Shown in pieces: positions 29,364 through 64,000 of a stretch of DNA of 64,000 nt. The position numbers were made by a program, and so were the translations under genes. Within the stretch, counting starts at the first letter, position 1, and every line of letters starts with the position of its first letter. The notes under the pieces were generated by a model. The model saw only the letters and a program-made list of their open reading frames with translations. It ran no database searches and had not been told where the DNA came from. The stretch covers positions 1,704-65,703 of the forward strand of contig JAQTRE010000002.1 in assembly GCA_028711995.1 (NCBI GenBank). The letters run 5' to 3'. The stretch comes from Dehalococcoidia bacterium (GTDB taxonomy: Bacteria; Chloroflexota; Dehalococcoidia; SZUA-161; SpSt-899).

Positions 29364-29543
29364 AACGGCTACGCAGAATTCTAGAGGCCATGCATTGAGA
29401 GAAAGGGGCCTATCTGGTTATCGATAACCATCGATAAGGAAGGAACCCTGAGAATTGCCGAAAAACCGGTCACTGGATTATTGATCGGCTTGAAGCAATG
29501 GTGAATCGTAATCCCTCACTATCGCTTTGTGAGGAGGCTGGGA

Positions 29544-29933
29544 ATGAATCGGAAAGTATTGGTAGTTGACGATGACCCAACTATGCTCAAGACTGTGAAG
29601 GCAATCCTGAGCAGTAATGGCTTTGCGGTGACCACTGCCGCGGGGGGGCAACAGTGTCTTGCGGAGCTGAAAATGGGGTTCAAAGGGGTAATCCTTATGG
29701 ATGTAATGATGCCTGATATGGATGGGTGGGCCACTATCAGAGAGATCGTCAACCGTGGACTTCTGGAGGGAAATGTGATCACCATGTTGACTGCAAAACA
29801 TACTCCAGATACAGAGATGGAAGAGCTTGCCGAGTGCGTTCTGAACTACATCAGAAAGCCGTTTGAACTCCGCGAACTCAATTCAGTTGTGGAGGAATGC
29901 AGTTCTTATTTGGAATCACTGGAGAGTATTTAA
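29544..29933 (+). CDS. Stand-alone response-regulator receiver domain. It looks like the REC half of a split CheB. The start is at MNRKVLVVDDDP; the track ORF begins at 29529.
   Basis: The REC acid pocket DDD is present, along with the phospho-acceptor Asp in the LMDVMMP context and the K near the C-terminus. Its C-terminus overlaps the following methylesterase ORF in another frame. Confidence 0.75.
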   Translation: MNRKVLVVDDDPTMLKTVKAILSSNGFAVTTAAGGQQCLAELKMGFKGVILMDVMMPDMDGWATIREIVNRGLLEGNVITMLTAKHTPDTEMEELAECVLNYIRKPFELRELNSVVEECSSYLESLESI

Positions 29934-29965
29934 CCGGCCGCCTGCTGGCTGATCTAGGAGCAGAA

Positions 29966-30565
29966 GTGGAGTTTTCAAAAAACATCATCATAATCGGTTC
30001 TTCTAGCGGGGGACCTCTGACTTTGAGGAGGGTGTTGGCCAAGTTGCCGGTGCTCGATGCTTCCATCCTCATTGTTCAGCACATGCCCAAGTTTATCAAT
30101 GACACCATCAGAGAGTCTCTGTCACGAATGACGGATATGCGTGTCAGATTAGCAGAGGACAGGGCCATGTTGGAAGACGGGAAAGTCTTTGTCGCTCCCA
30201 GCGAAGTGCATATGGAGATAGAGGATAACCGAAGGATCAGGCTGCGTCAAAGCGAAAGGGTCAACTTTGTGTGCCCGTCGATAGACGTTACGATGCAGTC
30301 TATCAGACACGAACCTGGGTTGTCCACTGTCGGCGTCATTCTAACCGGCATAGGTCGAGATGGAGCACAGGGAATCAGCCATATCAAATGTTTGGGAGGC
30401 ACAACCATCGCACAGGATAGCAGGACATGCGTCGTATACGGTATGCCCAAGGCAGCCGTTGAGACCGGTAACGTGGACTTTGTGCTGACTCCTGAAGAGA
30501 TACGGGAGAAACTTATTGAGCTGGTAAAAGGATCAAGGGGGAAAAATGGTAACGTTAGCAGCTGA
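29966..30565 (+). CDS. CheB-type methylesterase catalytic domain only. A GTG start with an RBS is proposed; the track ORF begins at 29897 and overlaps the REC gene.
   Basis: IIIIGSSSGGPLTLRRVLAKLP…ILIVQHMP… is the CheB_methylest signature with the catalytic Ser-His-Asp. It is in a different frame from the upstream REC ORF. Confidence 0.7.
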   Translation: MEFSKNIIIIGSSSGGPLTLRRVLAKLPVLDASILIVQHMPKFINDTIRESLSRMTDMRVRLAEDRAMLEDGKVFVAPSEVHMEIEDNRRIRLRQSERVNFVCPSIDVTMQSIRHEPGLSTVGVILTGIGRDGAQGISHIKCLGGTTIAQDSRTCVVYGMPKAAVETGNVDFVLTPEEIREKLIELVKGSRGKNGNVSS

Positions 30566-32675
30566 TGTGACACCGGAAGAATTGCAGGTGTTTCTGCAAG
30601 ACACAGATGAACAATTGCAGGTCCTGGATGAAGATATCATCAAGCTGGAGAATGAAGGGGATAACCCGGAGGTGTTGCAGGAGATTTTCCGCGCCGCTCA
30701 TACGATAAAGGGATCCTCCGCCATGGTCGGTTATCACAAGATGGCCGATCTGACTCATGCCATGGAGAGCATACTGGACAAGCTGAGGAAAGGCACGCTA
30801 TCGGTCAATACCCAGATAGCCAATGCTCTTTTGCATAGCCTGGATAGTCTCCGAGTGCTGCGGAATAATCTGACCGCTAAGAAGGAAGAGAATATTGACG
30901 TCGATTCTGTCATTGCGACACTAAAAGAGCTCACCAGCGCTGAAGCGAAGCTCGCACAGGCCGGGAAGTCGGATCAGGAGACGCCCACAGCGGTGAGGAT
31001 ATCCCTGGATAAGAGTGAGTATAAGCGACTTCAGGAATCGCTGGCCTTGAGCCACAGGGTACATCAGATAGAGATGGCAATCAGCAAGGAAAGCCAATGG
31101 GCGGCGGTTCGCTGTCTTCAAGCATTAAACGAGCTGGATGAAAAAGGAATCGTCATTGCATCTAAGCCCTCCCGGAAAGAGATTGAGGCTGAGAAAGTGG
31201 AATCTCAGTTGATATTGATCTTTGCCGGATTGCTGGAGGAAGAAGAAATAAGAGCGCTGCTCTGCACAATATCCGATGTGGAGAATGTAAGAGTTGGTTT
31301 CTACGATCCTGGCGAAGACGGCTGCCCAGGTGAAAAAGCTGTGGAGGATGGGGCCCTTAACGCATTTGATGTAGAGAAGACCGTCAAAACTGATCGCCCG
31401 GCACAATCCCAGTCTTCGGGCGCTCCAGCCGAACGGGCTCCGGTTGAAGCCATTAAAGCAGCTGAGACGGTTCGGATTGATGTGGAACGGCTGGATAGCC
31501 TGATGAACATGATCGGCGAGTTGGTAGTTGCCCGAACCAGGATGAACCAGATCAGCCGGTCGCTGGACCTCAAATATAGAGAGGATGAAGATGTGGTGGC
31601 TCTGAGCAAGACCTTCACCCAGGTCACCAAAGTCATCGATCAGCTTCAACTGGATATCACCGTTGCTCGCATGCTGCCGGTAGGAACAGTGTTCAATCGC
31701 TTCCCTAGGATGGTCAGAGACCTGGCCCAAAAGATGGGGAAAAAGGTTGATTTCATCATCACGGGTCAGGAGACGGGGATTGACCGTTCGGTGATAGAGC
31801 ATATCCGCGACCCGTTGGTGCATTTACTGAGGAATTCGGTCGATCATGGCATCGAGACTTCGGAAAAGCGCGAGGCTGCTGGGAAGCCGGAAAAGGCAAC
31901 CGTTCGGCTTTCAGCAGCTCATGAACAAAATTTCATCATGATCACCGTAGAGGATGACGGCAAGGGAATCGATGGAGCGGTGATCAAAGAGGTTGCTCTC
32001 AAAAAAGGCCTGATAACCGCTGAGGCCGCATCGAGGATGAGTGATGCCGAGGCCATCGATCTCATCTTCGCATCCGGAGTATCAACCGTTGAAAAGGCCA
32101 CCGATGTATCCGGCAGGGGAGTGGGAATGGATATCGTGCGCAAGAATATTGAAGCGTTCAACGGCGTCATTTCTGTGGAGACGAAAGTGGGCCAGGGCAC
32201 CAAGTTTGTATTGAGGTTACCGCTTACCCTGGCAACCATTAATGCGCTGCTGGTTTCCTCTGGCAATACGATTTATGCCATTCCTCTGGTCACCATCAGC
32301 GAAACACTGAGACTCAGCCCGAAAGATATTAAGACGGCTGCTCAAAGGGAGGTGTTCAGCCTCAGGGACAGAGTGGTGCCGTTAATTAGACTGAACGAGG
32401 TATTTGATACGGATATAGAGGAATCCACTGACGCGGAAATGGTTCACATCGTTGTGGCCCGCGTCGGCGAGCGAATGGTGGGACTTTCAGTGGATTCTTT
32501 GATAGAGCCTCAGGAAGTGGTGGTAAAGTCTATGGGCAGCTTCATCGGCAACGTCCACGGCATAGCCGGAGCCACCATTCTTGGCAGCGGAGAAGTGGCA
32601 CTGATATTGGATGTGCCCAGTTTGATAAAGTCTTGCAGCGAATCGATGAAGTTTGGCGGGCAATCCATGAACTAG
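30546..32675 (+). CDS. cheA: Chemotaxis histidine kinase CheA (709 aa: Hpt, dimerisation, HATPase and CheW-like domains)
   Basis: The Hpt phosphorylation site is AAHTIKGSSAMVGY, the HATPase_c G-boxes are present (…GRGVGMDIV…), and the C-terminal CheW-like domain is intact. Confidence 0.9.
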   Translation: MVTLAADVTPEELQVFLQDTDEQLQVLDEDIIKLENEGDNPEVLQEIFRAAHTIKGSSAMVGYHKMADLTHAMESILDKLRKGTLSVNTQIANALLHSLDSLRVLRNNLTAKKEENIDVDSVIATLKELTSAEAKLAQAGKSDQETPTAVRISLDKSEYKRLQESLALSHRVHQIEMAISKESQWAAVRCLQALNELDEKGIVIASKPSRKEIEAEKVESQLILIFAGLLEEEEIRALLCTISDVENVRVGFYDPGEDGCPGEKAVEDGALNAFDVEKTVKTDRPAQSQSSGAPAERAPVEAIKAAETVRIDVERLDSLMNMIGELVVARTRMNQISRSLDLKYREDEDVVALSKTFTQVTKVIDQLQLDITVARMLPVGTVFNRFPRMVRDLAQKMGKKVDFIITGQETGIDRSVIEHIRDPLVHLLRNSVDHGIETSEKREAAGKPEKATVRLSAAHEQNFIMITVEDDGKGIDGAVIKEVALKKGLITAEAASRMSDAEAIDLIFASGVSTVEKATDVSGRGVGMDIVRKNIEAFNGVISVETKVGQGTKFVLRLPLTLATINALLVSSGNTIYAIPLVTISETLRLSPKDIKTAAQREVFSLRDRVVPLIRLNEVFDTDIEESTDAEMVHIVVARVGERMVGLSVDSLIEPQEVVVKSMGSFIGNVHGIAGATILGSGEVALILDVPSLIKSCSESMKFGGQSMN

Positions 32676-32745
32676 CAACGAGAAAAGGCAAGACAGAAGA
32701 CCTGGTAGATATTGATTATGCGCGAACACAGGCACTAATAGGAGG

Positions 32746-33393
32746 GTGAAATTGGAGAAAAGCAGCAAATCAGGACTCAAGGAGATTGATGTAGGGAAAT
32801 GGGCGGAACTCGTCGGGCAAGGAACTCAGAATGCGGTCCATGGCCTATCTGGAATGGTCGGGGTGGAGATTAAGACCGTTGCCCTTGATCTTAAAGTAAT
32901 CCCGGCAGCGAAAGCGGCAGATCTGGTTGGCGGGCCGGAGAATGAAGTGGCATCCATCTATTTGATGATCACCGGCGCAGCAACGGGTCATATTATGCTG
33001 ATCTATTCAAAGGAAGTGGCCTTTGGCCTGGTGGATATGCTGATGGGACAGCAGGTCGGAACCACCAAGGAATTGGGTGAGATGGAATCCTCTGCCCTGG
33101 GTGAGATGGGCAATATCACGGGGTCATTTTTCCTCAATTCAGTAGCCGATAACACCGGTCTGCGTCTGATGCCTTCGATACCAACGGTGATGATCGACAT
33201 GGCCGGATCGATCCTTGATTCAGCCGTAGCCGATGTCCTGCAGGATCATGATGAATTATTCGCCATGGAAGCCATCTTTGCCGTTGGAAATCAAGAGATC
33301 AGCGGAACACTCCTGGTTTTACCAACTGCGGAGTTTATGGAGGTTATGGTAGAGCATAGCAAACTGATCCCTAAGAAGGGGGCACAGTGCTAA
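32746..33393 (+). CDS. cheC: CheY-P phosphatase CheC (the start may be the TTG at ~32752)
   Basis: Two CheC-type repeats with E/N-containing active-site helices (…SALGEMGNITGSFFLNSVAD…). Confidence 0.8.
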   Translation: MKLEKSSKSGLKEIDVGKWAELVGQGTQNAVHGLSGMVGVEIKTVALDLKVIPAAKAADLVGGPENEVASIYLMITGAATGHIMLIYSKEVAFGLVDMLMGQQVGTTKELGEMESSALGEMGNITGSFFLNSVADNTGLRLMPSIPTVMIDMAGSILDSAVADVLQDHDELFAMEAIFAVGNQEISGTLLVLPTAEFMEVMVEHSKLIPKKGAQC

Positions 33394-33881
33394 CACTAAC
33401 TCAAGAAAGCACGGTCGTGGTGAGTTTGGGAGAGATCAAGTTGTCTAAGGATCCGCAAACAGTTTTGACGTGTCTGGGCTTGGGGTCGTGTATCGGCCTT
33501 TGTATGTATGACCCTATTGCCGGTGTGGGAGGAATGGCGCACATTGTTCTGCCATTCAGCAACAATGGGGCTGCGGGCAATGCGAAATTCGCCGATATTG
33601 CCATTCCCCAGCTACTTCAAGCAATGAGAGAACATAATGCCGTGAGATCTCGCCTGATCACAAAACTCGCCGGTGGCGCGCAGATGATCAAGCCGGGAAC
33701 GGCGGATAATTTCAATACGGGGCAGAGGAATATCGAGGCGGTCAAACAGATATTGGCAGACGAGGCCATCAGGGTTTCGGCCGCCGAGGTAGGCGGATCT
33801 CGTGGACGTTCACTTAAGTTATTCGTGGGGACTGGCAAGGTGATGGTGAAATCAGTGGGTTCAACAGATGTGGCACTGTAG
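33387..33881 (+). CDS. cheD: Chemoreceptor glutamine deamidase CheD
   Basis: 164 aa containing …LGLGSCIGLCMYD…, the CheD catalytic Cys region. It overlaps the cheC stop, which is typical of cheC-cheD pairs. Confidence 0.85.
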   Translation: MLTLTQESTVVVSLGEIKLSKDPQTVLTCLGLGSCIGLCMYDPIAGVGGMAHIVLPFSNNGAAGNAKFADIAIPQLLQAMREHNAVRSRLITKLAGGAQMIKPGTADNFNTGQRNIEAVKQILADEAIRVSAAEVGGSRGRSLKLFVGTGKVMVKSVGSTDVAL

Positions 33882-33908
33882 GCCCGAAGAAGGAAACAAG
33901 GAGAATAA

Positions 33909-34268
33909 ATGATGGCGAAAATATTAGTTGTAGATGATGCCCCCTTCATGCGCATGAGGGCCAGTAAATTATTGAGCGAGAATGGATTCCAGGTGATCGA
34001 GGCCGGAAACGGCGCCGAAGCGGTGAAGAAGTACAAAGATGAAAAGCCCGATGCGGTGATGATGGATATCACCATGCCTGAGATGGATGGGTTGCAGGCG
34101 TTGAAGGAGATGAGAAAGCTGGACCCGAATGCTAAGGTGTGCATGGTCACGGCCATGGGACAACAATCTATTGTGTTGGAAGCCATAAGCGCCGGAGCTA
34201 AGGACTTTGTGGTGAAGCCCTTTGATGCCAACCGGGTTCTGGCGACGGTTCAAAAGATGGTGAGCTAG
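33909..34268 (+). CDS. cheY: Chemotaxis response regulator CheY
   Basis: 119 aa single-REC protein with VVDDAPFMR, the phospho-acceptor Asp in the MMDITMPEMDG context, and the K at the KPF motif. Confidence 0.9.
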   Translation: MMAKILVVDDAPFMRMRASKLLSENGFQVIEAGNGAEAVKKYKDEKPDAVMMDITMPEMDGLQALKEMRKLDPNAKVCMVTAMGQQSIVLEAISAGAKDFVVKPFDANRVLATVQKMVS

Positions 34269-34391
34269 GAAACCTGTGATTAAGTGGTGCAGAACACCTC
34301 CTGCCGGGAATCCGGGGGTGCCCAACACTTGATGGCGCTTGCCTAGGGAAGCGCCATCAACACACAGGAATTCTGAAGAAAGGAACCTGCC

Positions 34392-35471
34392 ATGAGCAAT
34401 AGCATTAGCGTGCTGATAGTGGATGATTCTGCCTTTGCCAGGTTTGCTATTTCCAAGCAGATTGGCGCTCATCCGGAGATGAAGGTCATAGGTACTGCTC
34501 GCGATGGGATTGATGCCCTGGAGAAAATCAAGCAATTGAAACCGGATGTGGTGACACTCGATGTGGAAATGCCGAAGATGGATGGCTTGGCGGTACTCAA
34601 ACATGTCATGTCAGAGTATCCCACACCGGTGATCATGCTCAGCAGTCTGACCAGTGAGGGTGCGGAGACAACACTGAAGGCGCTGGATATGGGAGCTGTT
34701 GATTTCTTCCTTAAGCCTTCCTCGGCGGCACCGGCAGGGCTATCGCCCGAAATGGTGAACGATTTGGTAACCAAAATAAGGATGGCTGCCAAAACCGATG
34801 TGTCACGCATGAAGACGATTGCCACCGTCCCGAGAAAAAGTCAGGCGATGGAGAAGAAAGCACGCAAACCTCGTGCCAGTATACAGAATAAAGTGATCGT
34901 TCTCGGGTGCTCAACCGGAGGCCCGCGAGCATTGCACAGGGTGATTCCTTCGCTGCCCGGAGATTTGCCAGCAGCCATGCTGGTAGTGCAACATATGCCG
35001 CCGGGATTCACCAAGTCATTGGCCAATAGGCTGAACGACTTGTCGGAGGTGGAAGTCCGAGAGGCTCAGGAGGGAGATGCCCTCAAGCCCGGTCTGGTAT
35101 TACTAGCTCCCGGCGGCAGCCATATGACGGTGAATGAAGGTGGCCGGGTGAGCCTCAATCAGGGCCCGATGGAGTGTGGGCTGCGGCCTGCAGCCAATGT
35201 GACCATGGAGTCGGTGGCTAAGGCTTATCAAAAGACTGCTCTCGGTGTAGTGCTCACCGGCATGGGAAATGATGGTACCAGGGGGGCGGGTCTCATTAAA
35301 AAGTTCGGCGGTGAAGTGGTGGTGGAGGACGAATCTACCTGTGTGGTCTACGGAATGCCCAAAAGCATTGTTGATGCCGGGTATGCCGACAGAGTTTTGC
35401 CATTATCGCAGATAGCAGGTGAGATCACCAAAAGATGCCATGTAAATCTCGAAATGGCCCTTGAGGTATGA
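34392..35471 (+). CDS. cheB: Protein-glutamate methylesterase CheB (intact REC + methylesterase, 359 aa)
   Basis: An N-terminal REC (LIVDDSAF…LDVEMPKMDG) is followed by a methylesterase domain (…VIVLGCSTGGPRAL…LVVQHMP…). Confidence 0.9.
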   Translation: MSNSISVLIVDDSAFARFAISKQIGAHPEMKVIGTARDGIDALEKIKQLKPDVVTLDVEMPKMDGLAVLKHVMSEYPTPVIMLSSLTSEGAETTLKALDMGAVDFFLKPSSAAPAGLSPEMVNDLVTKIRMAAKTDVSRMKTIATVPRKSQAMEKKARKPRASIQNKVIVLGCSTGGPRALHRVIPSLPGDLPAAMLVVQHMPPGFTKSLANRLNDLSEVEVREAQEGDALKPGLVLLAPGGSHMTVNEGGRVSLNQGPMECGLRPAANVTMESVAKAYQKTALGVVLTGMGNDGTRGAGLIKKFGGEVVVEDESTCVVYGMPKSIVDAGYADRVLPLSQIAGEITKRCHVNLEMALEV

Positions 35472-35474
35472 ACT

Positions 35475-36311
35475 ATGGATGATGTGGAATACGGTTATCT
35501 GAAAAAGAAAGTGCTGGATCTGATTGATATCGATCTGGATAGCTATAAGGAAAAACAGATGCGTCGGCGGTTGGCCGGATTTCTGGAGCGATCCGGTGCC
35601 CCCAACCCCGCAGCCTACGTCAGCCGCGTCGAGCAGGATCAGCGGATGTTGGATGAATTACGGGATTTCCTGACGATAAACGTGTCCTCATTCTTCCGTG
35701 ACGAAACGCAGTTTGAGAAGCTCCAGACAACGATACTGCCTGAATTGCTGGGCCACAGCCACCGTCTCAATATCTGGAGTGCCGGCTGTTCCAATGGCTC
35801 TGAGCCCTATACAATGGCCATGATTCTAGGCGAACTCGCTGCCAAGCAGGAACACCGGATACTCGCTACGGATATAGATAAGACCATCATCGCGCGGGCG
35901 CAAGGCGGTGGGCCTTACACCGCAGCTGACGTTAAAACCGTGCCGCCAAACCTTCGGGACAGATACTTCAAGGAATCGGCAGGCGCCTATTGGGTGGTTG
36001 ATAGTATCAAGAAGAAGGTAGAGTTCAGGCAACATAACTTGCTGGCCGATCCATATGAAAATGGTTTCGACCTAATTCTGTGCCGCAATGTGATGATCTA
36101 TTTTACAGACGGAGCCAAGGATAAGATCATCACGCGATTCTCGAACTCACTGAAAGATCAAGGAGTTCTGTTCCTCGGAGGGAGCGAAATCGTCTTCCGC
36201 CCGGCAGAGATGGGGCTTAAGACTTTGTCCCCCTCCCTCTATCGTAAGACAATGATCTCTGGCAGCACTGGTGGCCAGTCTTTCTGGGGGCAGAAAACCT
36301 TTAAAGAATAA
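35475..36311 (+). CDS. cheR: Chemotaxis protein methyltransferase CheR
   Basis: A CheR N-terminal helical domain is followed by a SAM-MTase domain (…TINVSSFFRD…NIWSAGCSNGSEPYTMAMIL…). Confidence 0.9.
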   Translation: MDDVEYGYLKKKVLDLIDIDLDSYKEKQMRRRLAGFLERSGAPNPAAYVSRVEQDQRMLDELRDFLTINVSSFFRDETQFEKLQTTILPELLGHSHRLNIWSAGCSNGSEPYTMAMILGELAAKQEHRILATDIDKTIIARAQGGGPYTAADVKTVPPNLRDRYFKESAGAYWVVDSIKKKVEFRQHNLLADPYENGFDLILCRNVMIYFTDGAKDKIITRFSNSLKDQGVLFLGGSEIVFRPAEMGLKTLSPSLYRKTMISGSTGGQSFWGQKTFKE

Positions 36312-36334
36312 TGGCTCAATAAGGGGAAAATATC

Positions 36335-37435
36335 ATGCGTCGCATATCGGTTAAATACGCTCAACCCGAAATGGAGCTGGCAAAGCCTCTTTTTGATAAA
36401 TGGGGCAATATGCTGTTACCCATTGGCGCCAAACTGACGGAACGACAGCTGCGGTTATTGCCGAACAAGGGTGTAAGGGAATTATCCATTGAAGACTCGC
36501 GAGTCGATGATGTGCTTTGGGACCCACTTATAAAGCCGGAGACGCAGCAAGAAGCAGTCAAGGCAATCAGCGATCTGTTGACCATAAACCAGAAGGGTGG
36601 AGGGATCAAAAGTCCCAAGGACCCGAGAATGGTCTCCGCTCGACTGAACATCGAGAAAATGAGCTATATGATCACGCAAGAGGTTTTGACATCAGTTATG
36701 GGGGAGCCGGATCTCTCTGGCTGTCAATCCATCGAAGATTATCATTGCATTCAACCTGTGCAATCTACCATCCTGGCAGTGATGCTGGCAAAGGAGGCCG
36801 GCTTCAACGAAGGGGATATGCTGAGCGTGGCCAAAGCCGCCATGCTGCAGAACATTGGTTATACCTTTCTGCCTCAGGAGATATTGAGAAAAGAAACGGA
36901 GCTATCACCAGAGGAGACTCTGGAATTTGAAAAACATCCCATATATGGTGCTGAAATCCTCCGTCAGACCGGCCAGACTTCTCCTCAGATCATCGAAGCA
37001 GTACTGCAACATGAGGAACGGTGGAACGGGAGTGGTTATCCTAACAAGATAAGGGGCTGGGATATATCCCCATTTGCCCAGATTATAGGGATTGCACATA
37101 CCTACTACGATCTTGTGTCGGCGAGACCATGGAGGGAGCCATTCAAGCAAATGGATGCGTTTGAGTACATCATGGCATACGGGGGAGAGCTTTTCGATCC
37201 GGAATGGGTGCAGGTCTTCTCGCGTCGCGTTCCCATCTACCCCAGCGGGGTGAAGGTGAAATTGAGCACAGGGGAGATCGGAATCATTTCTGATGCCAAC
37301 CTCGGACATATCGGCAGACCGATGGTGCGGATCATCTCTGATAGTAAAGGCAATGATGTCAGCCGCCCATACGATATGGACCTCTCGAAGCCAAGTTATC
37401 AGGATCGACTGGTTATAGAACTCTTAGAGATTTGA
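36335..37435 (+). CDS. DUF3391-like N-terminal domain + HD-GYP-like domain with a degenerate HD dyad (366 aa), paralog 1
   Basis: The N-terminus MRRISVKYAQPEMELAKPLFDKWGNMLLPIGAKLTERQL fits the DUF3391 pattern that commonly precedes HD-GYP domains. The core has …YHCIQPVQSTILAVMLAKEAG… and KAAMLQNIGY where active enzymes have AALLHDIGK. The GYP motif is retained (HEERWNGSGYP). A C-terminal extension of about 100 aa follows. Confidence 0.7.
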   Translation: MRRISVKYAQPEMELAKPLFDKWGNMLLPIGAKLTERQLRLLPNKGVRELSIEDSRVDDVLWDPLIKPETQQEAVKAISDLLTINQKGGGIKSPKDPRMVSARLNIEKMSYMITQEVLTSVMGEPDLSGCQSIEDYHCIQPVQSTILAVMLAKEAGFNEGDMLSVAKAAMLQNIGYTFLPQEILRKETELSPEETLEFEKHPIYGAEILRQTGQTSPQIIEAVLQHEERWNGSGYPNKIRGWDISPFAQIIGIAHTYYDLVSARPWREPFKQMDAFEYIMAYGGELFDPEWVQVFSRRVPIYPSGVKVKLSTGEIGIISDANLGHIGRPMVRIISDSKGNDVSRPYDMDLSKPSYQDRLVIELLEI

Positions 37436-37455
37436 TTGTGGAGCGACATTAAGCG

Positions 37456-37899
37456 ATGACCAAGGGAGTGATTTCACCCGCAAAAACAGAGATCCGGAGA
37501 GCAACGGTACTGGTTGTAGATGATGCTCGCTTTCAGCGCATGAGGTCCGTCAGATTGCTGACCGAAAACGGGTTCCATGTAGTTGAGGCATTGAATGGCA
37601 TCGAAGCCATCAAGCGGTACAAAGAGGAAAAACCTGATGCAGTGATCATGGATATTACCATGCCCGAGATGGATGGATTGGCGACCCTGAAGGAGTTGAT
37701 TAAACTGGATACCGATGCCAAGGTGTGCATTGTCACCGCGATGGGCCAACAGTCCATAGTCATGGAGGCTATCCATGCTGGTGCCAAGGATTTTGTGGTA
37801 AAACCCTGTAGTGATGATCGGGTTCTGGCGGCGGTCAGGAAAATGATCGGCCAGGGTGAACTTCTTCAAAAGGGACAGGTGCAAGCCGCGCAGGAATAA
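37456..37899 (+). CDS. CheY-like single-domain response regulator (147 aa), paralog of cheY at 33909
   Basis: The REC domain is near-identical to CheY over its C-terminal two thirds (…DAVIMDITMPEMDGL…KVCIVTAMGQQSIV…AGAKDFVVKP…). Confidence 0.85.
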   Translation: MTKGVISPAKTEIRRATVLVVDDARFQRMRSVRLLTENGFHVVEALNGIEAIKRYKEEKPDAVIMDITMPEMDGLATLKELIKLDTDAKVCIVTAMGQQSIVMEAIHAGAKDFVVKPCSDDRVLAAVRKMIGQGELLQKGQVQAAQE

Positions 37900-37949
37900 C
37901 GAGTGGATAAGTTTCACCAGTAGGATAAAAAGGGATAAGGAAAGACACC

Positions 37950-39056
37950 ATGCGACGCATATCTGTTGAACACGCAAGACCAGGGATGCAACTGAGCAGC
38001 CCGGTCTTTGACAAATATGGGGACATGCTTTTGCCTGCAGGCACGGAGCTGGTGGACAACTACCTGAAGTCTCTGCAGAACAACGGAGTCTGGGAGCTTC
38101 TGATTGAGGACCCGCGAGTCAGCGATCTGACCATCAAGCCTCTGGTAAAGCTGGACATGCAGAAAGAGGCGGTCGAGGCAATGCGCCGATTGATCAACAT
38201 CAATAAGAACAAAAAAGGTGACCGAAGGAAGAATCTGGATGACGATGATATGTTCGCATCGAGGCTGGAAGTAGAGCGATTGACCTATGCCATAGTCCAG
38301 GCGATCCTTATCTCGCCTTTGGGCGAGCCGGACAGCTCAGGGTGTTTACTGGTGGAGGACTTCCATTATGTCCAACCGGTGCAGAGTACTACCCTGGCCA
38401 TTTTGTTGGCGAGGGAGGTCGGTTTGAGCAATACGGCTTTGCTCAATGTGGGAAAAGCAGCCATGCTGCAGAATATCGGCTATATCTGGCTGTCCTCTCC
38501 GCTGTGGGAAAAGAGGACTCCTCTGACTCAGGCGGAAAATACGGAGTTCGAGAAACATCCCCTATACGGAGCTGAGATTCTCGGCCAGTATGAACGCGTT
38601 CCTCCGGCAGTGGTTGAAGCCGTGGCTCAGCATCACGAGCGGTTTGATGGTACAGGTTATCCCAATGGTGTAAAGGGATGGGATGTATCGCCTCTGGCGC
38701 AGCTCATCAGCATAGCCGAGACCTATTATGGGCTTGTTTCCGCCCGGCCAGGGAAAAAACCTATTATGCCAGCGGATGCTTTTGACTATATTATGGCGGA
38801 GGGAGGGCGGATGTTTGACCCGGAGTTGGTAAAGGTATTTGCCAGAAGGGTTCCTATCTATCCCAGTGGTGTGATGGTTAAGTTAAATTCAGGGGAGACC
38901 GGCATCGTTACTAATGTTAATCTGGGACACATTGGCAGACCAGTGGTACGTGTTGTTAAGGATACCAACGGTAAAGACGTGAATCCCCCTATTGATATGG
39001 ACCTCACCACGCCCGTGTATCAGAGCAAGAAAATAACGGAGTTGCTGGAAATATAA
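37950..39056 (+). CDS. DUF3391-like + degenerate HD-GYP-like protein (368 aa), paralog 2
   Basis: It has the same architecture as 36335-37435 and the same substitution KAAMLQNIGY in place of the HD motif, followed by HHERFDGTGYP. The C-terminal extension is conserved. Confidence 0.7.
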   Translation: MRRISVEHARPGMQLSSPVFDKYGDMLLPAGTELVDNYLKSLQNNGVWELLIEDPRVSDLTIKPLVKLDMQKEAVEAMRRLININKNKKGDRRKNLDDDDMFASRLEVERLTYAIVQAILISPLGEPDSSGCLLVEDFHYVQPVQSTTLAILLAREVGLSNTALLNVGKAAMLQNIGYIWLSSPLWEKRTPLTQAENTEFEKHPLYGAEILGQYERVPPAVVEAVAQHHERFDGTGYPNGVKGWDVSPLAQLISIAETYYGLVSARPGKKPIMPADAFDYIMAEGGRMFDPELVKVFARRVPIYPSGVMVKLNSGETGIVTNVNLGHIGRPVVRVVKDTNGKDVNPPIDMDLTTPVYQSKKITELLEI

Positions 39057-39072
39057 CTTTGGGGAATAAACT

Positions 39073-39939
39073 ATGGCCGATGAAGTACTTTCGCAAGCTC
39101 AAATAGATGCCCTGATATCAAGAAGTGCCTCCCAGAAGGGGGCCGACATGTCTCCTGAGATAGAGGCTCTGCTGACGAAGGGCAGTGAAGCTCCCAGTGA
39201 AGGACTGTTTGCCAAAAGGATAGCCGGAAAGCTGGCCCAAAGTGAAGGCTCTAGCGCGGGTGTTCCTGAAAAGGGCCCAGCCGTTGCGGCACCCCCCGCA
39301 CCGAACACGTCCCCTGATAAAGGCGCTTCAAGTCAGCACGGCACGGCATCGGCTGCAAAGCCCGGTCCAAATGTGGCTCCAAATGCTGCATCGTCTAGCC
39401 CCTCGGGTGAAGTAGCGGCGACGAAAGCAGCGCCAAGGCAGATTGAACCGATGGGATCACCTAGGGCAAAAGGCCCTGGCAATGTTGGATCGGGGCAGGT
39501 GATGGCGAATTCAGATACGGAGAAGGCCATAAAGGCTTTGCAATCAGCAACAGATGCTCTGGCAAGGCGTATGGAGAAAGTTGAGTCCATCGCCGCGCGA
39601 GTGAGTCCTCTGGAAAGCGCTGTGGCCAATGGTGCTCAGCAGCCATCGCAACGGCCCGGACAAGACTCGGCAAAGGTTCGGCAAATGGAGATGGAAATAA
39701 AGAGCCTCAGATCGGAAATCCAAAAGATCACGGCGAGTATGCAGAACATCATGAATGTAACCAGGCAAAAGGAGAGCCAGATGAAGACCATCAACAAGGG
39801 GCTTCACAACAGTTTTGGTTACAATATTCGTGAAACTTTTGAATGCGAACATTGCGGTTCTCAGGGGCATGTTGTGGGACTGGTCAAATGCAGCCGGTGT
39901 GATGAAGAGAGTTGGTGGGGATGGTGGCCTCAGGAGTGA
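39073..39939 (+). CDS. Hypothetical protein (288 aa): N-terminal FliM-like CheY-P-binding peptide, Ala/Pro/Ser-rich disordered linker, coiled coil, C-terminal CxxC-x13-CxxC zinc ribbon
   Basis: The N-terminus MADEVLSQAQIDALISR matches the LSQxxIDALL CheY-docking motif of FliM/FliY N-termini. Residues 40-150 are of low complexity. Heptad-like segments are visible (…KSLRSEIQKITASMQNIM…). The C-terminus reads CEHCGSQGHVVGLVKCSRCDEESWWGWW. Confidence 0.55.
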   Translation: MADEVLSQAQIDALISRSASQKGADMSPEIEALLTKGSEAPSEGLFAKRIAGKLAQSEGSSAGVPEKGPAVAAPPAPNTSPDKGASSQHGTASAAKPGPNVAPNAASSSPSGEVAATKAAPRQIEPMGSPRAKGPGNVGSGQVMANSDTEKAIKALQSATDALARRMEKVESIAARVSPLESAVANGAQQPSQRPGQDSAKVRQMEMEIKSLRSEIQKITASMQNIMNVTRQKESQMKTINKGLHNSFGYNIRETFECEHCGSQGHVVGLVKCSRCDEESWWGWWPQE

Positions 39940-48222: not shown

Positions 48223-49314
48223 TTATAGGGGAGAGAATCGTTTATCCAGCTTCCTCAGAATTTGAGGCATGGTGGTATATTCCATCTCATCCATCGGCAG
48301 GCGATGGGGTTCGAAGGGGCCGTGGCGGCGCAGGTATTCTGCAACCACGTTAGCCTGATGACGCGCCTCATCAAAACTGACATCATCGAACATATCGACC
48401 GGGCCGACCAGTTTTCCTCCTGAAAGCTGGAACCCGGCACACACCACTCGCGGCGGCCCATCAAAGCGCGAAGGGTTCGAGTTGGGAATCGAGCACGGCA
48501 TCAACGGCCCATTATGTGATCCTCGCATCCATCCCTCTACTGATTGAGGGAAGGCGAACGGCTCAAGCACTTCTCCCACAGCCGGGAAGATTCCCTGCGA
48601 TCGAACAACCAGCACTGGATCGTCTTTGCCAACATACCGCCCCGCTACTGCAAAAAGCTTATCGGTAGAGGAAACCGCCGCTATTTCGCCCGAAGGTCGA
48701 TGACGGATGGATTTAACCGCATAGCGCGATGGAGATCCAATAAGCGCTAGCATATCGTAAAGTTCCTCCGGACAATTGAAGGTCACCTTCCGATGTTTCC
48801 GCACATCATGCACCTCGAAACTGAATCCGGAATGCATGTTTTCAGCGATGATCAGGCCAATGGTATTGAAGGGGTCCGCGAACATTTTGTATAAGGGCAT
48901 ATTCCATGCGCCGGAAGAAGTCTTGTCCGCCATGAAGATAAGTACCGGTTCGGAGCCTCGCTCCTCAAATTGCATCTCGGCAGATCCCGGACCCATCCCT
49001 TTCACATTTCCGGAGAAAGCATCACTCAGGAGATCTTGCCCCGCTCCGTGAAGTTTGAGCTTCTTGGCAACTTCTGTGCAGGCGATGAAGGTATCCCAGG
49101 CTAGTCGATGGATACGCCCATTTCCCTCGCCTTCTTGGTGCGTCATAATGAGCTGCAGATCATCCCCGCATCGGGTGACGCAAAAATCAACCAGGAGCCC
49201 TTGCCCCTTGGCTCTTATCATGTGCTCTTTGGCTTCCGCGATGAGATCAGGGTGCATACTGGAGTGCCCGACATAACCCCCGACATCTGCCTTTATTACG
49301 CTTAGTGTGATCAT
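48223..49314 (-). CDS. fbp: Fructose-1,6-bisphosphate aldolase/phosphatase (archaeal-type bifunctional, class V FBPase)
   Basis: The N-terminus MITLSVIKADVGGYVGHSSMHPDL… and the 363-aa length are characteristic of the FBP aldolase/phosphatase family. Confidence 0.9.
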   Translation of the reverse strand: MITLSVIKADVGGYVGHSSMHPDLIAEAKEHMIRAKGQGLLVDFCVTRCGDDLQLIMTHQEGEGNGRIHRLAWDTFIACTEVAKKLKLHGAGQDLLSDAFSGNVKGMGPGSAEMQFEERGSEPVLIFMADKTSSGAWNMPLYKMFADPFNTIGLIIAENMHSGFSFEVHDVRKHRKVTFNCPEELYDMLALIGSPSRYAVKSIRHRPSGEIAAVSSTDKLFAVAGRYVGKDDPVLVVRSQGIFPAVGEVLEPFAFPQSVEGWMRGSHNGPLMPCSIPNSNPSRFDGPPRVVCAGFQLSGGKLVGPVDMFDDVSFDEARHQANVVAEYLRRHGPFEPHRLPMDEMEYTTMPQILRKLDKRFSPL

Positions 49315-59360: not shown

Positions 59361-59480
59361 TGAGAACAGTTGGGGAATTTTGACATGCCGTTTATCCGGG
59401 GATGTTGGCGATGATGGCTTGCTAAGGGTGTTTTTGGTGTGGAAGTAGGTGGGTGAGATTTGATATAATGGAAATTACTT

Positions 59481-59554
59481 GGGCTCATAGCTCAGTTGGT
59501 CAGAGCATCTGCTTTACACGCAGAGGGTCAGAGGTTCGAGTCCTCTTGAGCCCA
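59481..59554 (+). tRNA. tRNA-Val (anticodon TAC)
   Basis: Cloverleaf read by hand: acceptor gggctca/tgagccc, D-arm tagctcagttggtcagagca, anticodon stem-loop tctgc-tttacac-gcaga (anticodon tac), T-arm agaggttcgagtcctct, discriminator a. Confidence 0.85.
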
Positions 59555-59853
59555 TTGTCAAACACGCTGTTTTGATCCTCTCTATTACAGCGGTTATGGT
59601 CATTCAAGCGTTTTCCCCATGTCAACGGCAATCCTCTGAGAAATAGCCCCTGTTGCTCATTTATCGTGGGTTCGTTTATCGGGAATCGAGAGCAGGGCCT
59701 GTCTTGTCGAAGCGGTTCGGGCCTGACTCTCGGGAGTATCTACTCGCCATTAAGCCCCATGCTAAAGCTTGACTTCTTTGATGGGCGTGGATATCATCTT
59801 AATAACATCTTTCGGCAGGCTTCACGATTAAATGCCGTCAGGAGGCCAGACTC

Positions 59854-60276
59854 ATGAAGTATCAAACTCAGGAGTGGTTGGATGCTATCGTGGCGAAGAG
59901 CAGGACGGATGAAGCATATCTGAAGAAAGCCAAAGGGCTGACTGCCAAGCAAAGATCGATCACCCTGGATGCCCCGGGAGGCGTGGATATTCTTATCGCT
60001 TGGGAATGGGTGGACGGCAAGGTAGTGAAGGCTAACCGCCAGGAGAAACCCGCCCCCAGTGAGTGGCGCAACTGGAAGAATGAAGACGAATACCTCTCGA
60101 CTACCATGGGAACCTATGAAAACCTGTCCAAGATCGCCAAGGGAGAGATGAATGCCCAGGTTGCCATGGCCAAGAAGCAATATGTTGTCCATGGGAACAT
60201 GCTCAAGATATTTGCTAAAATGGGCAAATTCAACGCTTTCGCCGAATTAGTAGCCTCGATTCCGACCGAGTACTAA
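59854..60276 (+). CDS. Hypothetical protein (140 aa; a small alpha/beta SCP2-like fold is possible but unproven)
   Basis: A good RBS (caggagg) is present, but no firm family assignment can be made. Confidence 0.4.
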   Translation: MKYQTQEWLDAIVAKSRTDEAYLKKAKGLTAKQRSITLDAPGGVDILIAWEWVDGKVVKANRQEKPAPSEWRNWKNEDEYLSTTMGTYENLSKIAKGEMNAQVAMAKKQYVVHGNMLKIFAKMGKFNAFAELVASIPTEY

Positions 60277-60494
60277 ATTCACTTTTTGTGAGAGGCTTTC
60301 CGAATCAACCATGTCGGCCCTCGCCATGGCTTGGCAATCATGCAGGGACATAATGCACCACGCCCCTGAACAGTTGAGCCCAGGCAAGGGCTGGTTTTGA
60401 TCCATACCCTGCAGGGACAACATTATGCCCGGAGGGAAGCACCTCCGGCTGTTTAGGTGACTAAATCCGAGAAATTTAAAAAGGAGGCTAAACT

Positions 60495-60899
60495 GTGGAA
60501 ATCAAGAAGGAAATCATGGAAATGGTCAACAAGCCCGGAAGGATCGGAACACTGAGCACAGCGAACAAGCAAGGCCAACCCAATGTGGCCTATCTGGGCA
60601 GCCCCCGTCTTACGCCGGAGGGAACGATGATCCTGGCGCTGGGAAACAATCGAACGCTACGTAATCTGAATGAGAATCCCAATGCTGTCTTCTTCTGTAT
60701 CGCAGATGGGCCGGTTGCGTTTACAACGCCGGGCTATCGTCTGTATATGAAGGTAAAAGAGATTCAAAATCAAGGGCCGATCCTCGATGGCATAAAGAGC
60801 GCCATTGCCAAAATGGGAGCAACCGACGCCGCTAAAATGATGGTAGCCGCGGTGATCTTTGAGGTCACTGAGATTCGTCCAATGGTAGCCAGAGGCTAA
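60495..60899 (+). CDS. Pyridoxamine 5'-phosphate oxidase-like FMN-binding split-barrel protein (GTG start)
   Basis: …GRIGTLSTANKQGQPNVAYLG… is typical of the PNPOx-like/flavin-reductase-like family. An RBS (aaggagg) precedes the GTG. Confidence 0.7.
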   Translation: MEIKKEIMEMVNKPGRIGTLSTANKQGQPNVAYLGSPRLTPEGTMILALGNNRTLRNLNENPNAVFFCIADGPVAFTTPGYRLYMKVKEIQNQGPILDGIKSAIAKMGATDAAKMMVAAVIFEVTEIRPMVARG

Positions 60900-61006
60900 A
60901 ACACTCATCGTAACGATAATTCCTCGATTGGTATGGACGCCGGAGAACCGAAGAGGTTGTCCGGGGTTCATGCTATCGATAGTGTAGGGAATTCAGGGAG
61001 GGAAAA

Positions 61007-61795
61007 TTGATCGTCGCCGGATGTGATGTTGGTTCTTTGACGGGTAAAGCCGTAATTATGAAGGATTCGAAGATAGTCTCCAGCGCAATTATGCTGCGCA
61101 CCGTGAAACCTGAGGACACGGCTAGGATAATTCTGGATCAGGCGCTCACCAAGGCCAAGATGAAGCGGGAAGATATCGAATATCTCGTTGGCACAGGTTA
61201 TGGCAGAACGAAAATCCCGTTTGCCAACACCAATATTTCAGAGATCACCTGTCATGGGAAAGGGGCTCACTGGCTGGTACCTTCGATAAGAACCATCCTC
61301 GATATTGGGGGACAGGACAGCAAGGTAATCTCACTGGATTCAGAAGGGTTCGTTGCCGACTTTGTGATGAACGACAAATGCGCCGCCGGAACGGGAAGGT
61401 TTCTGGAGGGTGTGGCAAAGGCGCTGGAAATAAAACTGGAAGAGCTGGGGCCAGTGTCGTTAAAGGCGCACGCTCCATCTCAAATCAGCAGTCAGTGTAG
61501 CGTCTTCGCCGAGTCTGAGGTCGTTACCTTGCTGGCTGATGGGGTGGACATCGCCGATATTGTGGCCGGTATTCACAAGGCAATCGCCAGCCGACTCATA
61601 TCGATGGTCAAAAAAGTGGGCGTCAAGAAGGACTTCACCGTCACCGGCGGTGTGGCCAAGAATGTCGGTGTGGTTAAGTTCCTTGAGGAAGGCCTGGGTG
61701 AGAAAGTCATGCATCTGCCGGAGGATCCTCAACTTGTGGGGGCTATAGGCGCTGCTATCTTAGCCCAGGAAAAACTGACCAAAAGCCGCGCGTGA
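61007..61795 (+). CDS. BadF/BadG/BcrA/BcrD-type ATPase (CoA-substrate-specific enzyme activase, HgdC-like), TTG start
   Basis: IVAGCDVGSLTGKAVIM… (actin-like ATPase phosphate-1 motif), …ITCHGKGA… and …DIGGQDSKVI… with the cluster-ligating Cys (NDKCAAGTGRFLE), which is characteristic of archerase-type activases. Confidence 0.8.
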   Translation: MIVAGCDVGSLTGKAVIMKDSKIVSSAIMLRTVKPEDTARIILDQALTKAKMKREDIEYLVGTGYGRTKIPFANTNISEITCHGKGAHWLVPSIRTILDIGGQDSKVISLDSEGFVADFVMNDKCAAGTGRFLEGVAKALEIKLEELGPVSLKAHAPSQISSQCSVFAESEVVTLLADGVDIADIVAGIHKAIASRLISMVKKVGVKKDFTVTGGVAKNVGVVKFLEEGLGEKVMHLPEDPQLVGAIGAAILAQEKLTKSRA

Positions 61796-61825
61796 GATCA
61801 ATAACTTTTCAGGGAGGTTGGCGAT

Positions 61826-62584
61826 ATGCAAACCAAGGGAATCAAAATAGCCGTAACCGGCAAGGGCGGCAGCGGCAAGACAATGCTCACTGCCCTGATG
61901 ACCAAACTCCTGGCAGAGAGAAAAGACCTCAAGATTCTGGCCATCGATGCGGATTCCGCCATCAACTTACCCTACGCGCTGGGGACGAACTTCACCAAGA
62001 CCGTGGCGGAACTCCGAAGATACATTATTGAAGATCCTTCAGCCAAGGACGAAATGCAAGATAAGCCGATCAAAGCGGTGATGGAGCAAAGCCTTCAGAC
62101 AGGAAAGGGATTTCAACTTCTGGTGATGGGCCGGCCTGAAGGACCGGGATGTTTTTGCGGTGTCAACGAACTGCTCAAGCACGGAATTGAAACCCTCTCT
62201 AAAGACTTTGATGTAACGTTGATTGATTGCGAGGCAGGCCCGGAACAAGTAAACCGCAGGGTGGTTAAGGGGGTGGATTTCCTCATCATCGTGACGGACA
62301 CGTCGATCAGAGGCGCCCAGGTGGCAGGCGCAATCACCGAGGTGATGGAGCGGGACAAAGATATCCGACCCGCTCATGCAGGCTTGGTTATTAACAGATT
62401 CAAGGAAGACGACAAACTCATCAGGGAGATTGCCGACCGGCGCGGCATCGAAATTCTTGCCCATATTCCGGAGGATCCAAACATCACCGAATATGACGGG
62501 GCCGGCAAGCCAATCATCGATCTGCCCAATAGCTCGCCGAGCGTCCTGGCCGTTCAAGAGCTGCTTCGTAAGATGAAGTTGTGA
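61826..62584 (+). CDS. CooC/AcsF-type MinD-family ATPase (nickel-insertion/CO-dehydrogenase-maturation-like)
   Basis: A deviant Walker A (GKGGSGKT) and the conserved CxC motif (GPGCFCG) are typical of CooC. Confidence 0.8.
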   Translation: MQTKGIKIAVTGKGGSGKTMLTALMTKLLAERKDLKILAIDADSAINLPYALGTNFTKTVAELRRYIIEDPSAKDEMQDKPIKAVMEQSLQTGKGFQLLVMGRPEGPGCFCGVNELLKHGIETLSKDFDVTLIDCEAGPEQVNRRVVKGVDFLIIVTDTSIRGAQVAGAITEVMERDKDIRPAHAGLVINRFKEDDKLIREIADRRGIEILAHIPEDPNITEYDGAGKPIIDLPNSSPSVLAVQELLRKMKL

Positions 62585-62908
62585 AGTGCTCATTTCTTGC
62601 ATGTGAGGGCATGGTTTTAAGGGCTTGCCATGACCATCCGTTCCAGCCTGGGGAACTCTCCTGATTTAGCTTGGCGCTTTCATCAGCCCTGCTAAGAACA
62701 GGCCGCTCTTTGGAATCAAATTGGACGCTGTGCTGCCTTGTAACGGGACTATTGTTGGGATACAATGGATGCAGAGTTATCAGAATCGGACGGTCTCGTT
62801 TTTGAGTTATACGGGCCTTCACGTCCACTTTTAACAACGGCTGACGGTAGCATCAGAAGGCTACCGAAGTTATTGGGCAAGCAAAATTTCAGGAGTAGGA
62901 GCGCTGAC

Positions 62909-64000
62909 TATGGAAGCATTAGCTCCCTCAAAAGAAGGATCACAGTTCATCAAAGAGGCGGGGGGTGAGGCATTCAAGCTCTGTTACCAGTGCGGTCTAT
63001 GCGCAGCTACATGTCCGTGGAATATGGTCAGGAACTTTATTCCCCGGCGCATGATCCACGGAACACAACTGGGCTTGTTTGAATCGGACATCGAAGAGTT
63101 CTGGCAGTGCACTACCTGCGGGGCATGCGTCAAGCGATGTCCGCGCGGCGTAGAGATCATCGATGTAATGAAGTCGGTGCGACGCATTGTCACTGAGTTC
63201 GGTGTTGGCAAGGTCCCCGATTCACTGCGCATCACCGTTAAGAATATCTCCGCCCTGGGCAACCCGCCAGGCGAAGCTCCTGAAAAGCGGGTGGACTGGG
63301 CAAAAGGCCTGGACGTCAAATCCTTCACCAAAGACACTGACCTGCTCTATTTCTCCTGTTGCATCCCCGCTTATGACCCTAAAGCTAAGAAGATTGCCCA
63401 GTCTACAGCCAGCATCCTCAAGAAATGCGGAGTGGATTTCGGCATATTGAACGGCCAGGAAAACTGCTGCGGAGAGAGCGTCCGCAAGGCGGGGGACGAG
63501 CGTGTGTTCCAGACCCTCGCGCAGAACAATATCAATATCATGAATGAGAGCGGCGTCAAAAAGATCCTGGTCAGTTCGCCGCATTGCTATCATACCTTCA
63601 AGAACGAATACCCCGAGCTTGGCGGGAAGTTTGAAGTCGTTCATTACACTCAATACATGGCACAACTCATCAAGGAAGGGAAGCTAAAACCAACCAAGCC
63701 CATGGCGAAGAAGGTCATATATCAAGATCCGTGCTATCTGGGACGGCACAACGGTATTTATGACGAGCCGAGGGAAGTGCTCAAGAGTATCCCCGGCTTG
63801 CAGTTGGTGGAATTCCCTGACGTTCGGGAAAACGCGCTCTGCTGCGGTGGTGGGGGCGGCAGAGTCTGGATGGAAACTGCGGCCGGAGAGCGATTTTCCG
63901 AGATCAAGGTAAAGCAGGCGGTTGAAGTCAAAGCTGAGGTGATAGCCGTTGCCTGCCCCTATTGCAAGGTGATGTTTGAAGACGCCATCCTGGTGACCGG
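62909..64000 (+). CDS. HdrD/GlpC-like iron-sulfur protein with two 4Fe-4S ferredoxin motifs and CCG cysteine-rich domains. It runs off the window end, so the C-terminus is missing. It is not in the ORF track.
   Basis: CYQCGLCAATCP and CTTCGACVKRCP (ferredoxin motifs), then CCG-domain patterns …FSCCIPAY…CCGESV… and …CCGGGGG…CPYCK… An RBS (aggagtagga) precedes the ATG at ~62909. Confidence 0.8.

Follow-up and report, generated by a model that had tools for sequence, protein, structure and literature searches.

A block with an activase and a CooC-like ATPase in a Dehalococcoidia genome is probably the accessory half of an iron-sulfur enzyme system

We analysed a 64,000-nucleotide stretch of the genome of a Dehalococcoidia bacterium (contig JAQTRE010000002.1 of assembly GCA_028711995.1, positions 1,704 to 65,703 of the forward strand), in the following called the window. 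At its end, downstream of a tRNA-Val gene, the plus strand carries a row of genes for an SCP2-like protein, a PNPOx-like protein, an activase of the HgdC/HadI/BzdQ type and a CooC-like ATPase, followed by an HdrD-like iron-sulfur protein. The first four genes (59854-62584) form one block. This block is probably the accessory half of an iron-sulfur enzyme system that depends on ATP and whose catalytic subunits are presumably encoded elsewhere, and the HdrD-like gene probably belongs to a separate unit. Judged by sequence similarity, the system would most likely belong to the superfamily of 2-hydroxyacyl-CoA dehydratases, class I benzoyl-CoA reductases (BCRs) and double-cubane-cluster proteins (DCCPs). 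The region is composed of the following features (aa, amino acids; ORF, open reading frame):

59480-59555, plus strand: tRNA-Val gene, anticodon TAC (Rfam RF00005, 75.2 bits; ARAGORN)
59854-60276, plus strand: SCP2-like protein, 140 aa, first gene of the block (Pfam SCP2, E=0.0065, a weak match)
60495-60899, plus strand: PNPOx-like FMN-binding split-barrel protein, 134 aa (PNPOx_N, PF01243, 35.9 bits, cut-off 28.1)
61007-61795, plus strand: HgdC/HadI/BzdQ-type activase, 262 aa, an ASKHA ATPase with a subunit-bridging [4Fe-4S] cluster (BcrAD_BadFG, PF01869, E=1e-64; TIGR00241)
61826-62584, plus strand: CooC-like SIMIBI P-loop ATPase of the CbiA/MinD/NifH type, 252 aa (CbiA, AAA_31 and Fer4_NifH domains)
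62585-62909, no strand: intergenic gap of 325 nt between the CooC-like and HdrD-like genes, probable operon boundary (no plus-strand ORF of at least 60 aa, no Rfam match)
62910-64000, plus strand: HdrD/TfrB/GlpC-like iron-sulfur protein, first 363 of 383 aa (PF02754 in two stretches, E=1e-34, 118.7 bits; Fer4 families)

The ORFs and domains agree with the initial annotation, which had listed a PNPOx-like gene, an activase gene, a CooC-like gene and an HdrD-like gene with two ferredoxin motifs and two CCG domains. All four ORFs from the SCP2-like to the CooC-like gene are intact and of full length, and every catalytic motif is kept. Only 30 nt separate the activase and CooC-like genes, and 325 nt lie between the CooC-like and HdrD-like genes. 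Identical copies (100%) of the window proteins are on record at NCBI from a Dehalococcoidia metagenome-assembled genome (MAG), on a contig of 90,003 bp; the activase is P0001 there and the HdrD-like protein P0121.

The activase and the catalytic partners of its relatives

By its sequence the activase is a normal member of its family, for which ATP-dependent one-electron transfer is predicted. It matches PF01869 with 219 bits (cut-off 31.5) and, over its full length, TIGR00241 'acyl-CoA dehydratase activase' with 280.5 bits (cut-off 125.4). Full-length matches in the PDB are MbdQ of 3-methylbenzoyl-CoA reductase (9gai_D, 247 bits), HadI (4eht, 228 bits) and HgdC (1hux, 219 bits). Cys125 and Cys164 align with the cluster cysteines of these three proteins; from the offset to 1hux we take them to correspond to Cys127 and Cys166 of HgdC. 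Family assignment and cluster-binding cysteine of the initial annotation are both borne out.

Catalytic genes of this superfamily belong to the HGD-D family (PF06050), and a BzdN/BzdO-like HGD-D pair adjoins the activase gene in 7/7 close orthologs with enough flanking sequence (69-83% identity; loci L002, L003/L004, L085, L086, L087/L088, L094 and L096), with the two HGD-D genes located directly upstream. No such neighbour of the activase is present in the window: a tblastn search with 185 diverse HGD-D queries and E values up to 1 yielded neither an HGD-D gene nor a remnant in the 64 kb, and the best match had an E value of 0.01 over 37 aa. The initial annotation had described the activase as an orphan without a catalytic partner beside it. 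This is correct for the window, but not for the activase family.

The nearest syntenic relative is L094, from another Dehalococcoidia MAG. There, two HGD-D genes (376 aa and 441 aa) are followed by genes for an SCP2-like protein (141 aa, 79% identity), a PNPOx-like protein (134 aa, 76%) and the activase (83%). This order is shared with the window, and the window block thus is the same cassette minus the catalytic pair. In L096 the order is GMC oxidoreductase, HGD-D, HGD-D, SCP2-like, CooC-like and activase. A more distant activase (49% identity), encoded at 10001-10759 of L080 on a deltaproteobacterial chromosome, lacks an HGD-D gene in the 10 kb up- and downstream, which shows that partner-unlinked activases exist in other lineages, too.

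The two HGD-D subunits of the relatives (here H1 and H2) have different affinities. H1 has BzdN as its best PDB match (8s02_B, 168-192 bits), and its top NCBIfam match is 'double_cubane' (double-cubane-cluster-containing anaerobic reductase, NF040772) with 238-240 bits against a cut-off of 350. The six-cysteine ligand set of the [8Fe-9S] cluster has been described (PMC11971306), and six cysteines of H1 that align with these ligands in BzdN and DCCP are invariant in 45 H1 sequences. H2 is about as far from HadB (54 bits) as from BzdO (46-50 bits), and its three cysteines for the catalytic [4Fe-4S] cluster are conserved to 96-100%. No equivalog model reaches its cut-off, neither for H1 (including bzdN) nor for the activase with the bzd and bcr models; the class I BCR scores of the activase are 220 against 380 bits for BzdQ, 198 against 578 for BcrA and 140 against 313 for BcrD.

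Comparison with the known systems shows a mixture of features. The activase has the same fold and length as HgdC (1hux) and HadI (4eht) and both cluster cysteines, and it is encoded by a single gene, which is consistent with a homodimer. Unlike in the HgdC/HadI dehydratase systems, no dehydratase genes adjoin the window activase, and where those systems have a HadC-type beta subunit, its orthologs are partnered by a BzdN/DCCP-like subunit with six cysteines. The Bzd and Mbd class I BCRs are resembled in that MbdQ (9gai) is the best solved-structure match of the activase and BzdN (8s02) that of the orthologs' H1. They differ in having two different ATPase subunits (BzdNOPQ, BcrABCD), whereas the window has one activase gene and no BzdP/BzdQ pair; the bzd and bcr equivalog scores are far below cut-off, the H2 of the relatives is as close to HadB as to BzdO, and cassettes with two activases occur only among the more distant relatives. 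With DCCP and its reductase DCCP-R (6eno, 7yyl), the relatives share the six cluster cysteines of H1, and both have an HgdC-like homodimeric reductase. DCCP is, however, a homodimer of one type of subunit, whereas the relatives have two distinct HGD-D subunits, and the H1 score for this family is 240 against the 350 bits of the cut-off.

Recurrent neighbours in the related cassettes are a MarR regulator, a GMC oxidoreductase, an acyl-CoA dehydrogenase, an SDR protein, a 341-aa protein with a C-terminal two-[4Fe-4S] domain, a Rieske protein and an HbpS-like protein. This set suggests a MarR-regulated catabolism of CoA esters or hydroxy compounds. In three cassettes a gene pair for a GlcD-like FAD oxidase and a GlcF/HdrD-like protein is found at the usual place of the GMC oxidoreductase (L144 5204-7811, L147 8592-12678, L126 11264-13796), which suggests that dehydrogenase modules for hydroxy compounds are interchangeable in these cassettes.

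The 341-aa protein is encoded directly 3′ of the CooC-like gene in 21 loci (for example L100 1704-2726, L132 10793-11884 and L144 7811-8803). Its C-terminal two-[4Fe-4S] ferredoxin domain is preceded by an unassigned, cysteine-rich N-terminal region of approximately 270 aa, and the protein is a candidate electron donor for these systems. Some cassettes contain a gene for a protein of approximately 274 aa between the activase and CooC-like genes (L005 3951-4730, L008 10822-11676, L010 10952-11773). This protein resembles the N-terminal domain of CdhC, a subunit of acetyl-CoA synthase (ACS; PF03598, E=2e-17), and is an unexpected second link to carbon monoxide dehydrogenase (CODH) and ACS. A relationship between the 341-aa iron-sulfur protein and the CdhC-like protein was rejected, since BLASTP detected no similarity.

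The CooC-like ATPase

The CooC-like protein contains a deviant Walker A motif, GKGGSGKT (residues 12-19), and in a full-length alignment its CxC motif (Cys109 and Cys111) aligns with the metal-binding CxC of CooC1 (PDB 3kje). This CxC motif is invariant in 72 homologs and likewise in a second alignment of 42. With CooC1 and AcsF (3kje), the protein thus has the deviant Walker A, the aligned CxC, an EAGxE...R motif and a similar length in common. It differs from them in that the phmmer score for CooC1 is just 41.8 bits, with MinD at 43.7 bits, in that its genomic partner is a BzdN/O-like enzyme rather than CODH/ACS, and in that its predicted fold is equally near to NifH and MinD. The AlphaFold2 (AF2) model has a pLDDT of 88, and its top Foldseek matches, NifH, FleN and MinD with TM scores of 0.70-0.77, do not discriminate. 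In the databases such proteins are labelled 'CO dehydrogenase maturation factor' (JGI) or 'AAA family ATPase' (NCBI).

The genomic neighbourhood is more informative. We fetched 80 metagenome loci with the CooC-like protein as anchor and termed long loci those 16 that extend for 3 kb or more to both sides of it. An HGD-D gene is found within 3 kb in 58 of the 80 loci, and nearly all of the remaining 22 are contigs that are too short. The BzdN/O-like pair adjoins the CooC-like gene in all 16 long loci, with homologs of 40-70% identity. An activase gene is present within 10 kb in only four of them. Since the other 12 have none within this distance, activases acting in trans appear to be normal in this family. 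The gene orders observed are H1-H2-CooC, CooC-H1-H2, H1-H2-activase-CooC and H1-H2-activase-activase-CooC. When the activase served as anchor (80 genome loci), the CooC-like gene was seen only with H1 of the BzdN-like type and never with dehydratase cassettes of the Lachnospiraceae type. CODH was not among the annotated recurrent neighbour families of the CooC-like loci.

The CooC-like protein is therefore a conserved component of the BzdN/O-like clade, and its linkage to the catalytic genes is tighter than that of the activase. Full-text searches of the literature found no description of a CooC-like ATPase together with BCR, dehydratase or DCCP systems. In this the cassettes differ from the classical dehydratase systems, for which such a companion of the activase was not found described, and from DCCP, the review of which does not mention such a partner. 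Metal insertion other than double-cubane maturation, cluster repair and NifH-like electron donation are all possible roles of the protein.

Forty of the 49 H2 subunits from cassettes with a CooC-like gene contain an extra cysteine (position 223 of the protein encoded at L094 1464-2789). In loci without a CooC-like gene, the same position is mostly occupied by tyrosine or serine. The extra cysteine may be a clade marker only, or it may be tied to the action of the CooC-like protein. Another CooC-like gene without HGD-D genes was found at L117 3877-4623, where 3.9 kb upstream and 1.1 kb downstream are available. It adjoins a divergent MarR gene and two zinc-ribbon/OB-fold genes, and the contig also encodes a protein with a long TPTLTATPSP repeat.

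Limits of the block and the HdrD-like gene

At its upstream end the block is bounded by the tRNA-Val gene, which also marks the break of synteny with the relatives that carry HGD-D genes. Nucleotide homology between the window and L094 starts exactly at 59854; further upstream the window contains the tRNA-Val gene and a peptidase gene, and L094 its HGD-D pair. No integration signature was found at the tRNA gene, as no 16-25-nt piece of it is repeated in the window. A promoter-like site is located upstream of the SCP2-like gene (59769-59797).

The SCP2 assignment of the first gene rests on Pfam matches across the family, which were obtained for 12 of 34 members of this 140-aa protein family (best E=1.6e-5); an AF2 model calculated without an alignment had a pLDDT of 46 and was unusable. 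The family is rare, with 58 representatives among 1.84 billion proteins. The window protein is 79-80% identical to the products of the L094 and L096 genes that follow the HGD-D pair and precede the activase or CooC-like gene. The PNPOx-like protein, which has a weak match to PDB 3in6 ('FMN-binding protein'), is 76% identical to the product of the L094 gene at the same position. Both proteins could be lineage-specific helpers, the PNPOx-like protein possibly as a flavin electron carrier and the SCP2-like protein possibly as an acyl-CoA or lipid binder.

The HdrD-like protein contains an N-terminal two-[4Fe-4S] ferredoxin domain (Fer4_8, Fer4_9, Fer4_10) and two CCG domains. The full-length protein P0121 has 383 aa, and thus 20 residues lie beyond the window. 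Its best NCBIfam match is TfrB with 146 bits against a cut-off of 385, and other equivalogs (GlpC, DsrK, TmcB, GlcF and others) are also below cut-off. Orthologs of approximately 382 aa with 64-68% identity are abundant in Chloroflexota and occur in three contexts: as a single gene in housekeeping surroundings with gatB, secG and tRNA synthetase genes (L089, L090), in a cluster of the order AFOR-Fer4-HdrD-HdrA-FlpD-formate dehydrogenase (L092, L093), and in Dehalococcoidia beside a NiFe hydrogenase, with an HdrA-like gene 16 nt after the HdrD gene (L175, L176). In these three contexts, comprising seven loci with 64-67% identity, no activase, CooC-like, HGD-D, SCP2-like or PNPOx-like gene was found within 8 kb of the HdrD ortholog. 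Conversely, no ortholog of the window HdrD was contained in approximately 170 loci retrieved around the activase or CooC-like gene, the best match having 39% identity.

The gap of 325 nt contains a weak promoter-like site (62738-62766), and a search for regulatory RNAs in it gave no Rfam match. The gap, the promoter-like site and the unrelated contexts of the orthologs together argue for a separate transcription unit. The HdrD-like gene thus probably opens an hdrD(-hdrA) unit of its own and would be an unrelated neighbour, probably followed by an HdrA-like gene. The HdrD-HdrA units of anaerobes show the same HdrD architecture, and an HdrA-like gene is located directly 3′ of the orthologs in two of the three contexts; unlike for the named units, no specific equivalog is above cut-off here, and the partner gene would lie past position 64000. 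No JGI metagenome contained an exact 48-mer taken from the end of the window. Look-ups of identical proteins gave a Logan contig of just 1.7 kb for the CooC-like protein and no record for the activase or the full-length HdrD-like protein.

The initial annotation had combined activase, CooC-like and HdrD-like proteins to an uncharacterised module for electron transfer or metallocentre assembly and had named co-occurrence of the four genes from PNPOx-like to HdrD-like as a check. The activase and CooC-like genes are indeed a conserved pair, being adjacent in many relatives, and a role of this kind is reasonable. Membership of the HdrD-like protein is not supported, and co-occurrence of the four genes was not observed in the loci inspected.

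The rest of the window is ordinary chromosome, with gyrB, yidC, pfk, metG, a chemotaxis operon, acetyl-CoA synthetase, trmD, rmuC and an M16 peptidase gene; no CODH or ACS gene is present in the 64 kb. A complete chemotaxis cluster (24545-39939, plus strand) includes genes for two methyl-accepting chemotaxis proteins, CheA, CheB and CheR as well as several HD-GYP-type proteins, and coincides with a strong positive GC skew from 24 to 40 kb. The minus strand encodes a multi-sensor protein of 1476 aa with dCache, HAMP, GAF, PAS, GGDEF and HD-GYP domains (19087-23517) and an archaeal-type bifunctional fructose-1,6-bisphosphate aldolase/phosphatase (48223-49314; FBPase_3, E=1e-179).

Competing explanations and significance

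If the block is the accessory half of such an enzyme system, its products could act as follows. The catalytic heterodimer of the relatives would be composed of a BzdN/DCCP-like subunit, carrying an [8Fe-9S] cluster held by six cysteines, and a HadB/BzdO-like subunit, carrying a [4Fe-4S] cluster held by three cysteines. In the relatives the genes for the heterodimer are located directly beside the accessory genes; those belonging to the window block are not found within the 62 kb upstream and are presumably located elsewhere. A dimer of the activase would take up an electron from a low-potential donor, and ATP hydrolysis would drive its injection into the heterodimer. The CooC-like ATPase would dimerise around its CxC site and act on the same heterodimer, most likely by inserting or repairing a metal or a cluster. 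An activase that is shared and acts in trans would fit the many cassettes without an activase gene. More tentatively, we suggest that the enzymes of a large BzdN/O-like double-cubane clade in Chloroflexota, Desulfobacterota and other anaerobes have the CooC-like ATPase as a third component dedicated to them. This ATPase might insert or repair a metal or cluster, or it might take the place of an absent activase by donating electrons in a NifH-like, ATP-driven manner, and the window would then encode both helpers, which serve several cassettes in trans.

Several points weigh against the interpretation as an accessory half. That the catalytic genes are located elsewhere in the genome is an assumption, and the window is exceptional within a family in which 16 of 16 long loci have HGD-D genes beside the CooC-like gene. 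All equivalogs score below cut-off, so that one can name neither the substrate nor whether it is dehydrated or reduced. BzdNO with an intact [8Fe-9S] cluster has been produced in E. coli (PMC11971306), and assembly of a double cubane therefore does not generally depend on a maturase of its own. This weakens a cluster-insertion role for the CooC-like protein and in particular the idea that it is an obligatory double-cubane maturase. Three of 25 related cassettes (L126, L144, L147) contain distant HdrD/GlcF-like genes (36-37% identity) together with GlcD-like FAD oxidases, and some link to an Fe-S/CCG protein is therefore possible. Sewell et al. noted that bzdNOPQ of marine Chloroflexi is directly followed by an Hdr-IFO cluster and proposed that this cluster regenerates ferredoxin for the reductase (PMC5736913), which is a caveat to the separation of the HdrD-like gene.

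The block could also be the relic of a cassette that lost its HGD-D genes by a rearrangement at the tRNA-Val gene, in which case the remaining accessory genes would be without a partner and heading for decay. The break in homology with L094 would fit such a loss, because it lies just after the tRNA gene, exactly where L094 has its HGD-D pair. The region seems to rearrange readily, since three close relatives show three gene orders, and the window breaks the adjacency rule seen in all long loci. We nevertheless regard a relic as unlikely. The four ORFs are intact and of full length with all catalytic motifs kept, and no HGD-D pseudogene fragments are left in the window. Moreover, the many cassettes that have no activase imply shared activases acting in trans, and L117 provides another CooC-like gene that stands alone.

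A joint function of the activase and the CooC-like protein with the HdrD-like protein and downstream partners such as HdrA, which would supply low-potential electrons or accept ATP-energised ones, appears similarly improbable to us. The genes are adjacent and on the same strand, and both the marine Hdr-IFO cluster next to bzdNOPQ (PMC5736913) and the distant HdrD/GlcF-like genes inside three cassettes (L126, L144, L147) would be in line with it. These cassette-linked genes are, however, distant paralogs paired with GlcD-like FAD oxidases and thus hydroxyacid dehydrogenase modules. The gap with its own promoter-like site and the mutual absence of window-HdrD orthologs and activase, CooC-like or HGD-D genes from each other's surroundings (8 kb in the three ortholog contexts; approximately 170 anchored loci, best match 39%) also speak against it. 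Very improbable is a third possibility, that the CooC-like protein is an ordinary nickel-insertion factor for CODH/ACS and encoded beside the activase by chance. It would explain the JGI label on the homologs, the alignment of CxC and Walker A with CooC1 and the CdhC N-terminal-like gene that adjoins the CooC-like gene in some related cassettes. But the window contains neither CODH nor ACS, the homologs adjoin BzdN/O-like genes in 16/16 long loci without CODH among the annotated recurrent neighbours, and similarity to CooC1 is low and no better than that to MinD. Our preferred interpretation thus remains the accessory half of an enzyme system, with the catalytic subunits encoded at another site.

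Benzoyl-CoA reductases, 2-hydroxyacyl-CoA dehydratases and double-cubane proteins carry out chemistry that is among the most reducing in biology. The family has so far been described as consisting of two parts, a catalytic iron-sulfur heterodimer and an HgdC-type activase. The present data add a large clade, common in sediment Chloroflexota, that has a third conserved partner, the CooC-like ATPase with its invariant CxC. This raises the question whether metal or cluster insertion takes place in this clade or whether a second energising ATPase, similar to the nitrogenase Fe protein, is used. For the window it follows that the activase owes its orphan status to the order of genes and that annotations should keep the HdrD-like gene out of the system. 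The link to the CooC-like ATPase is real and is the part worth following up.

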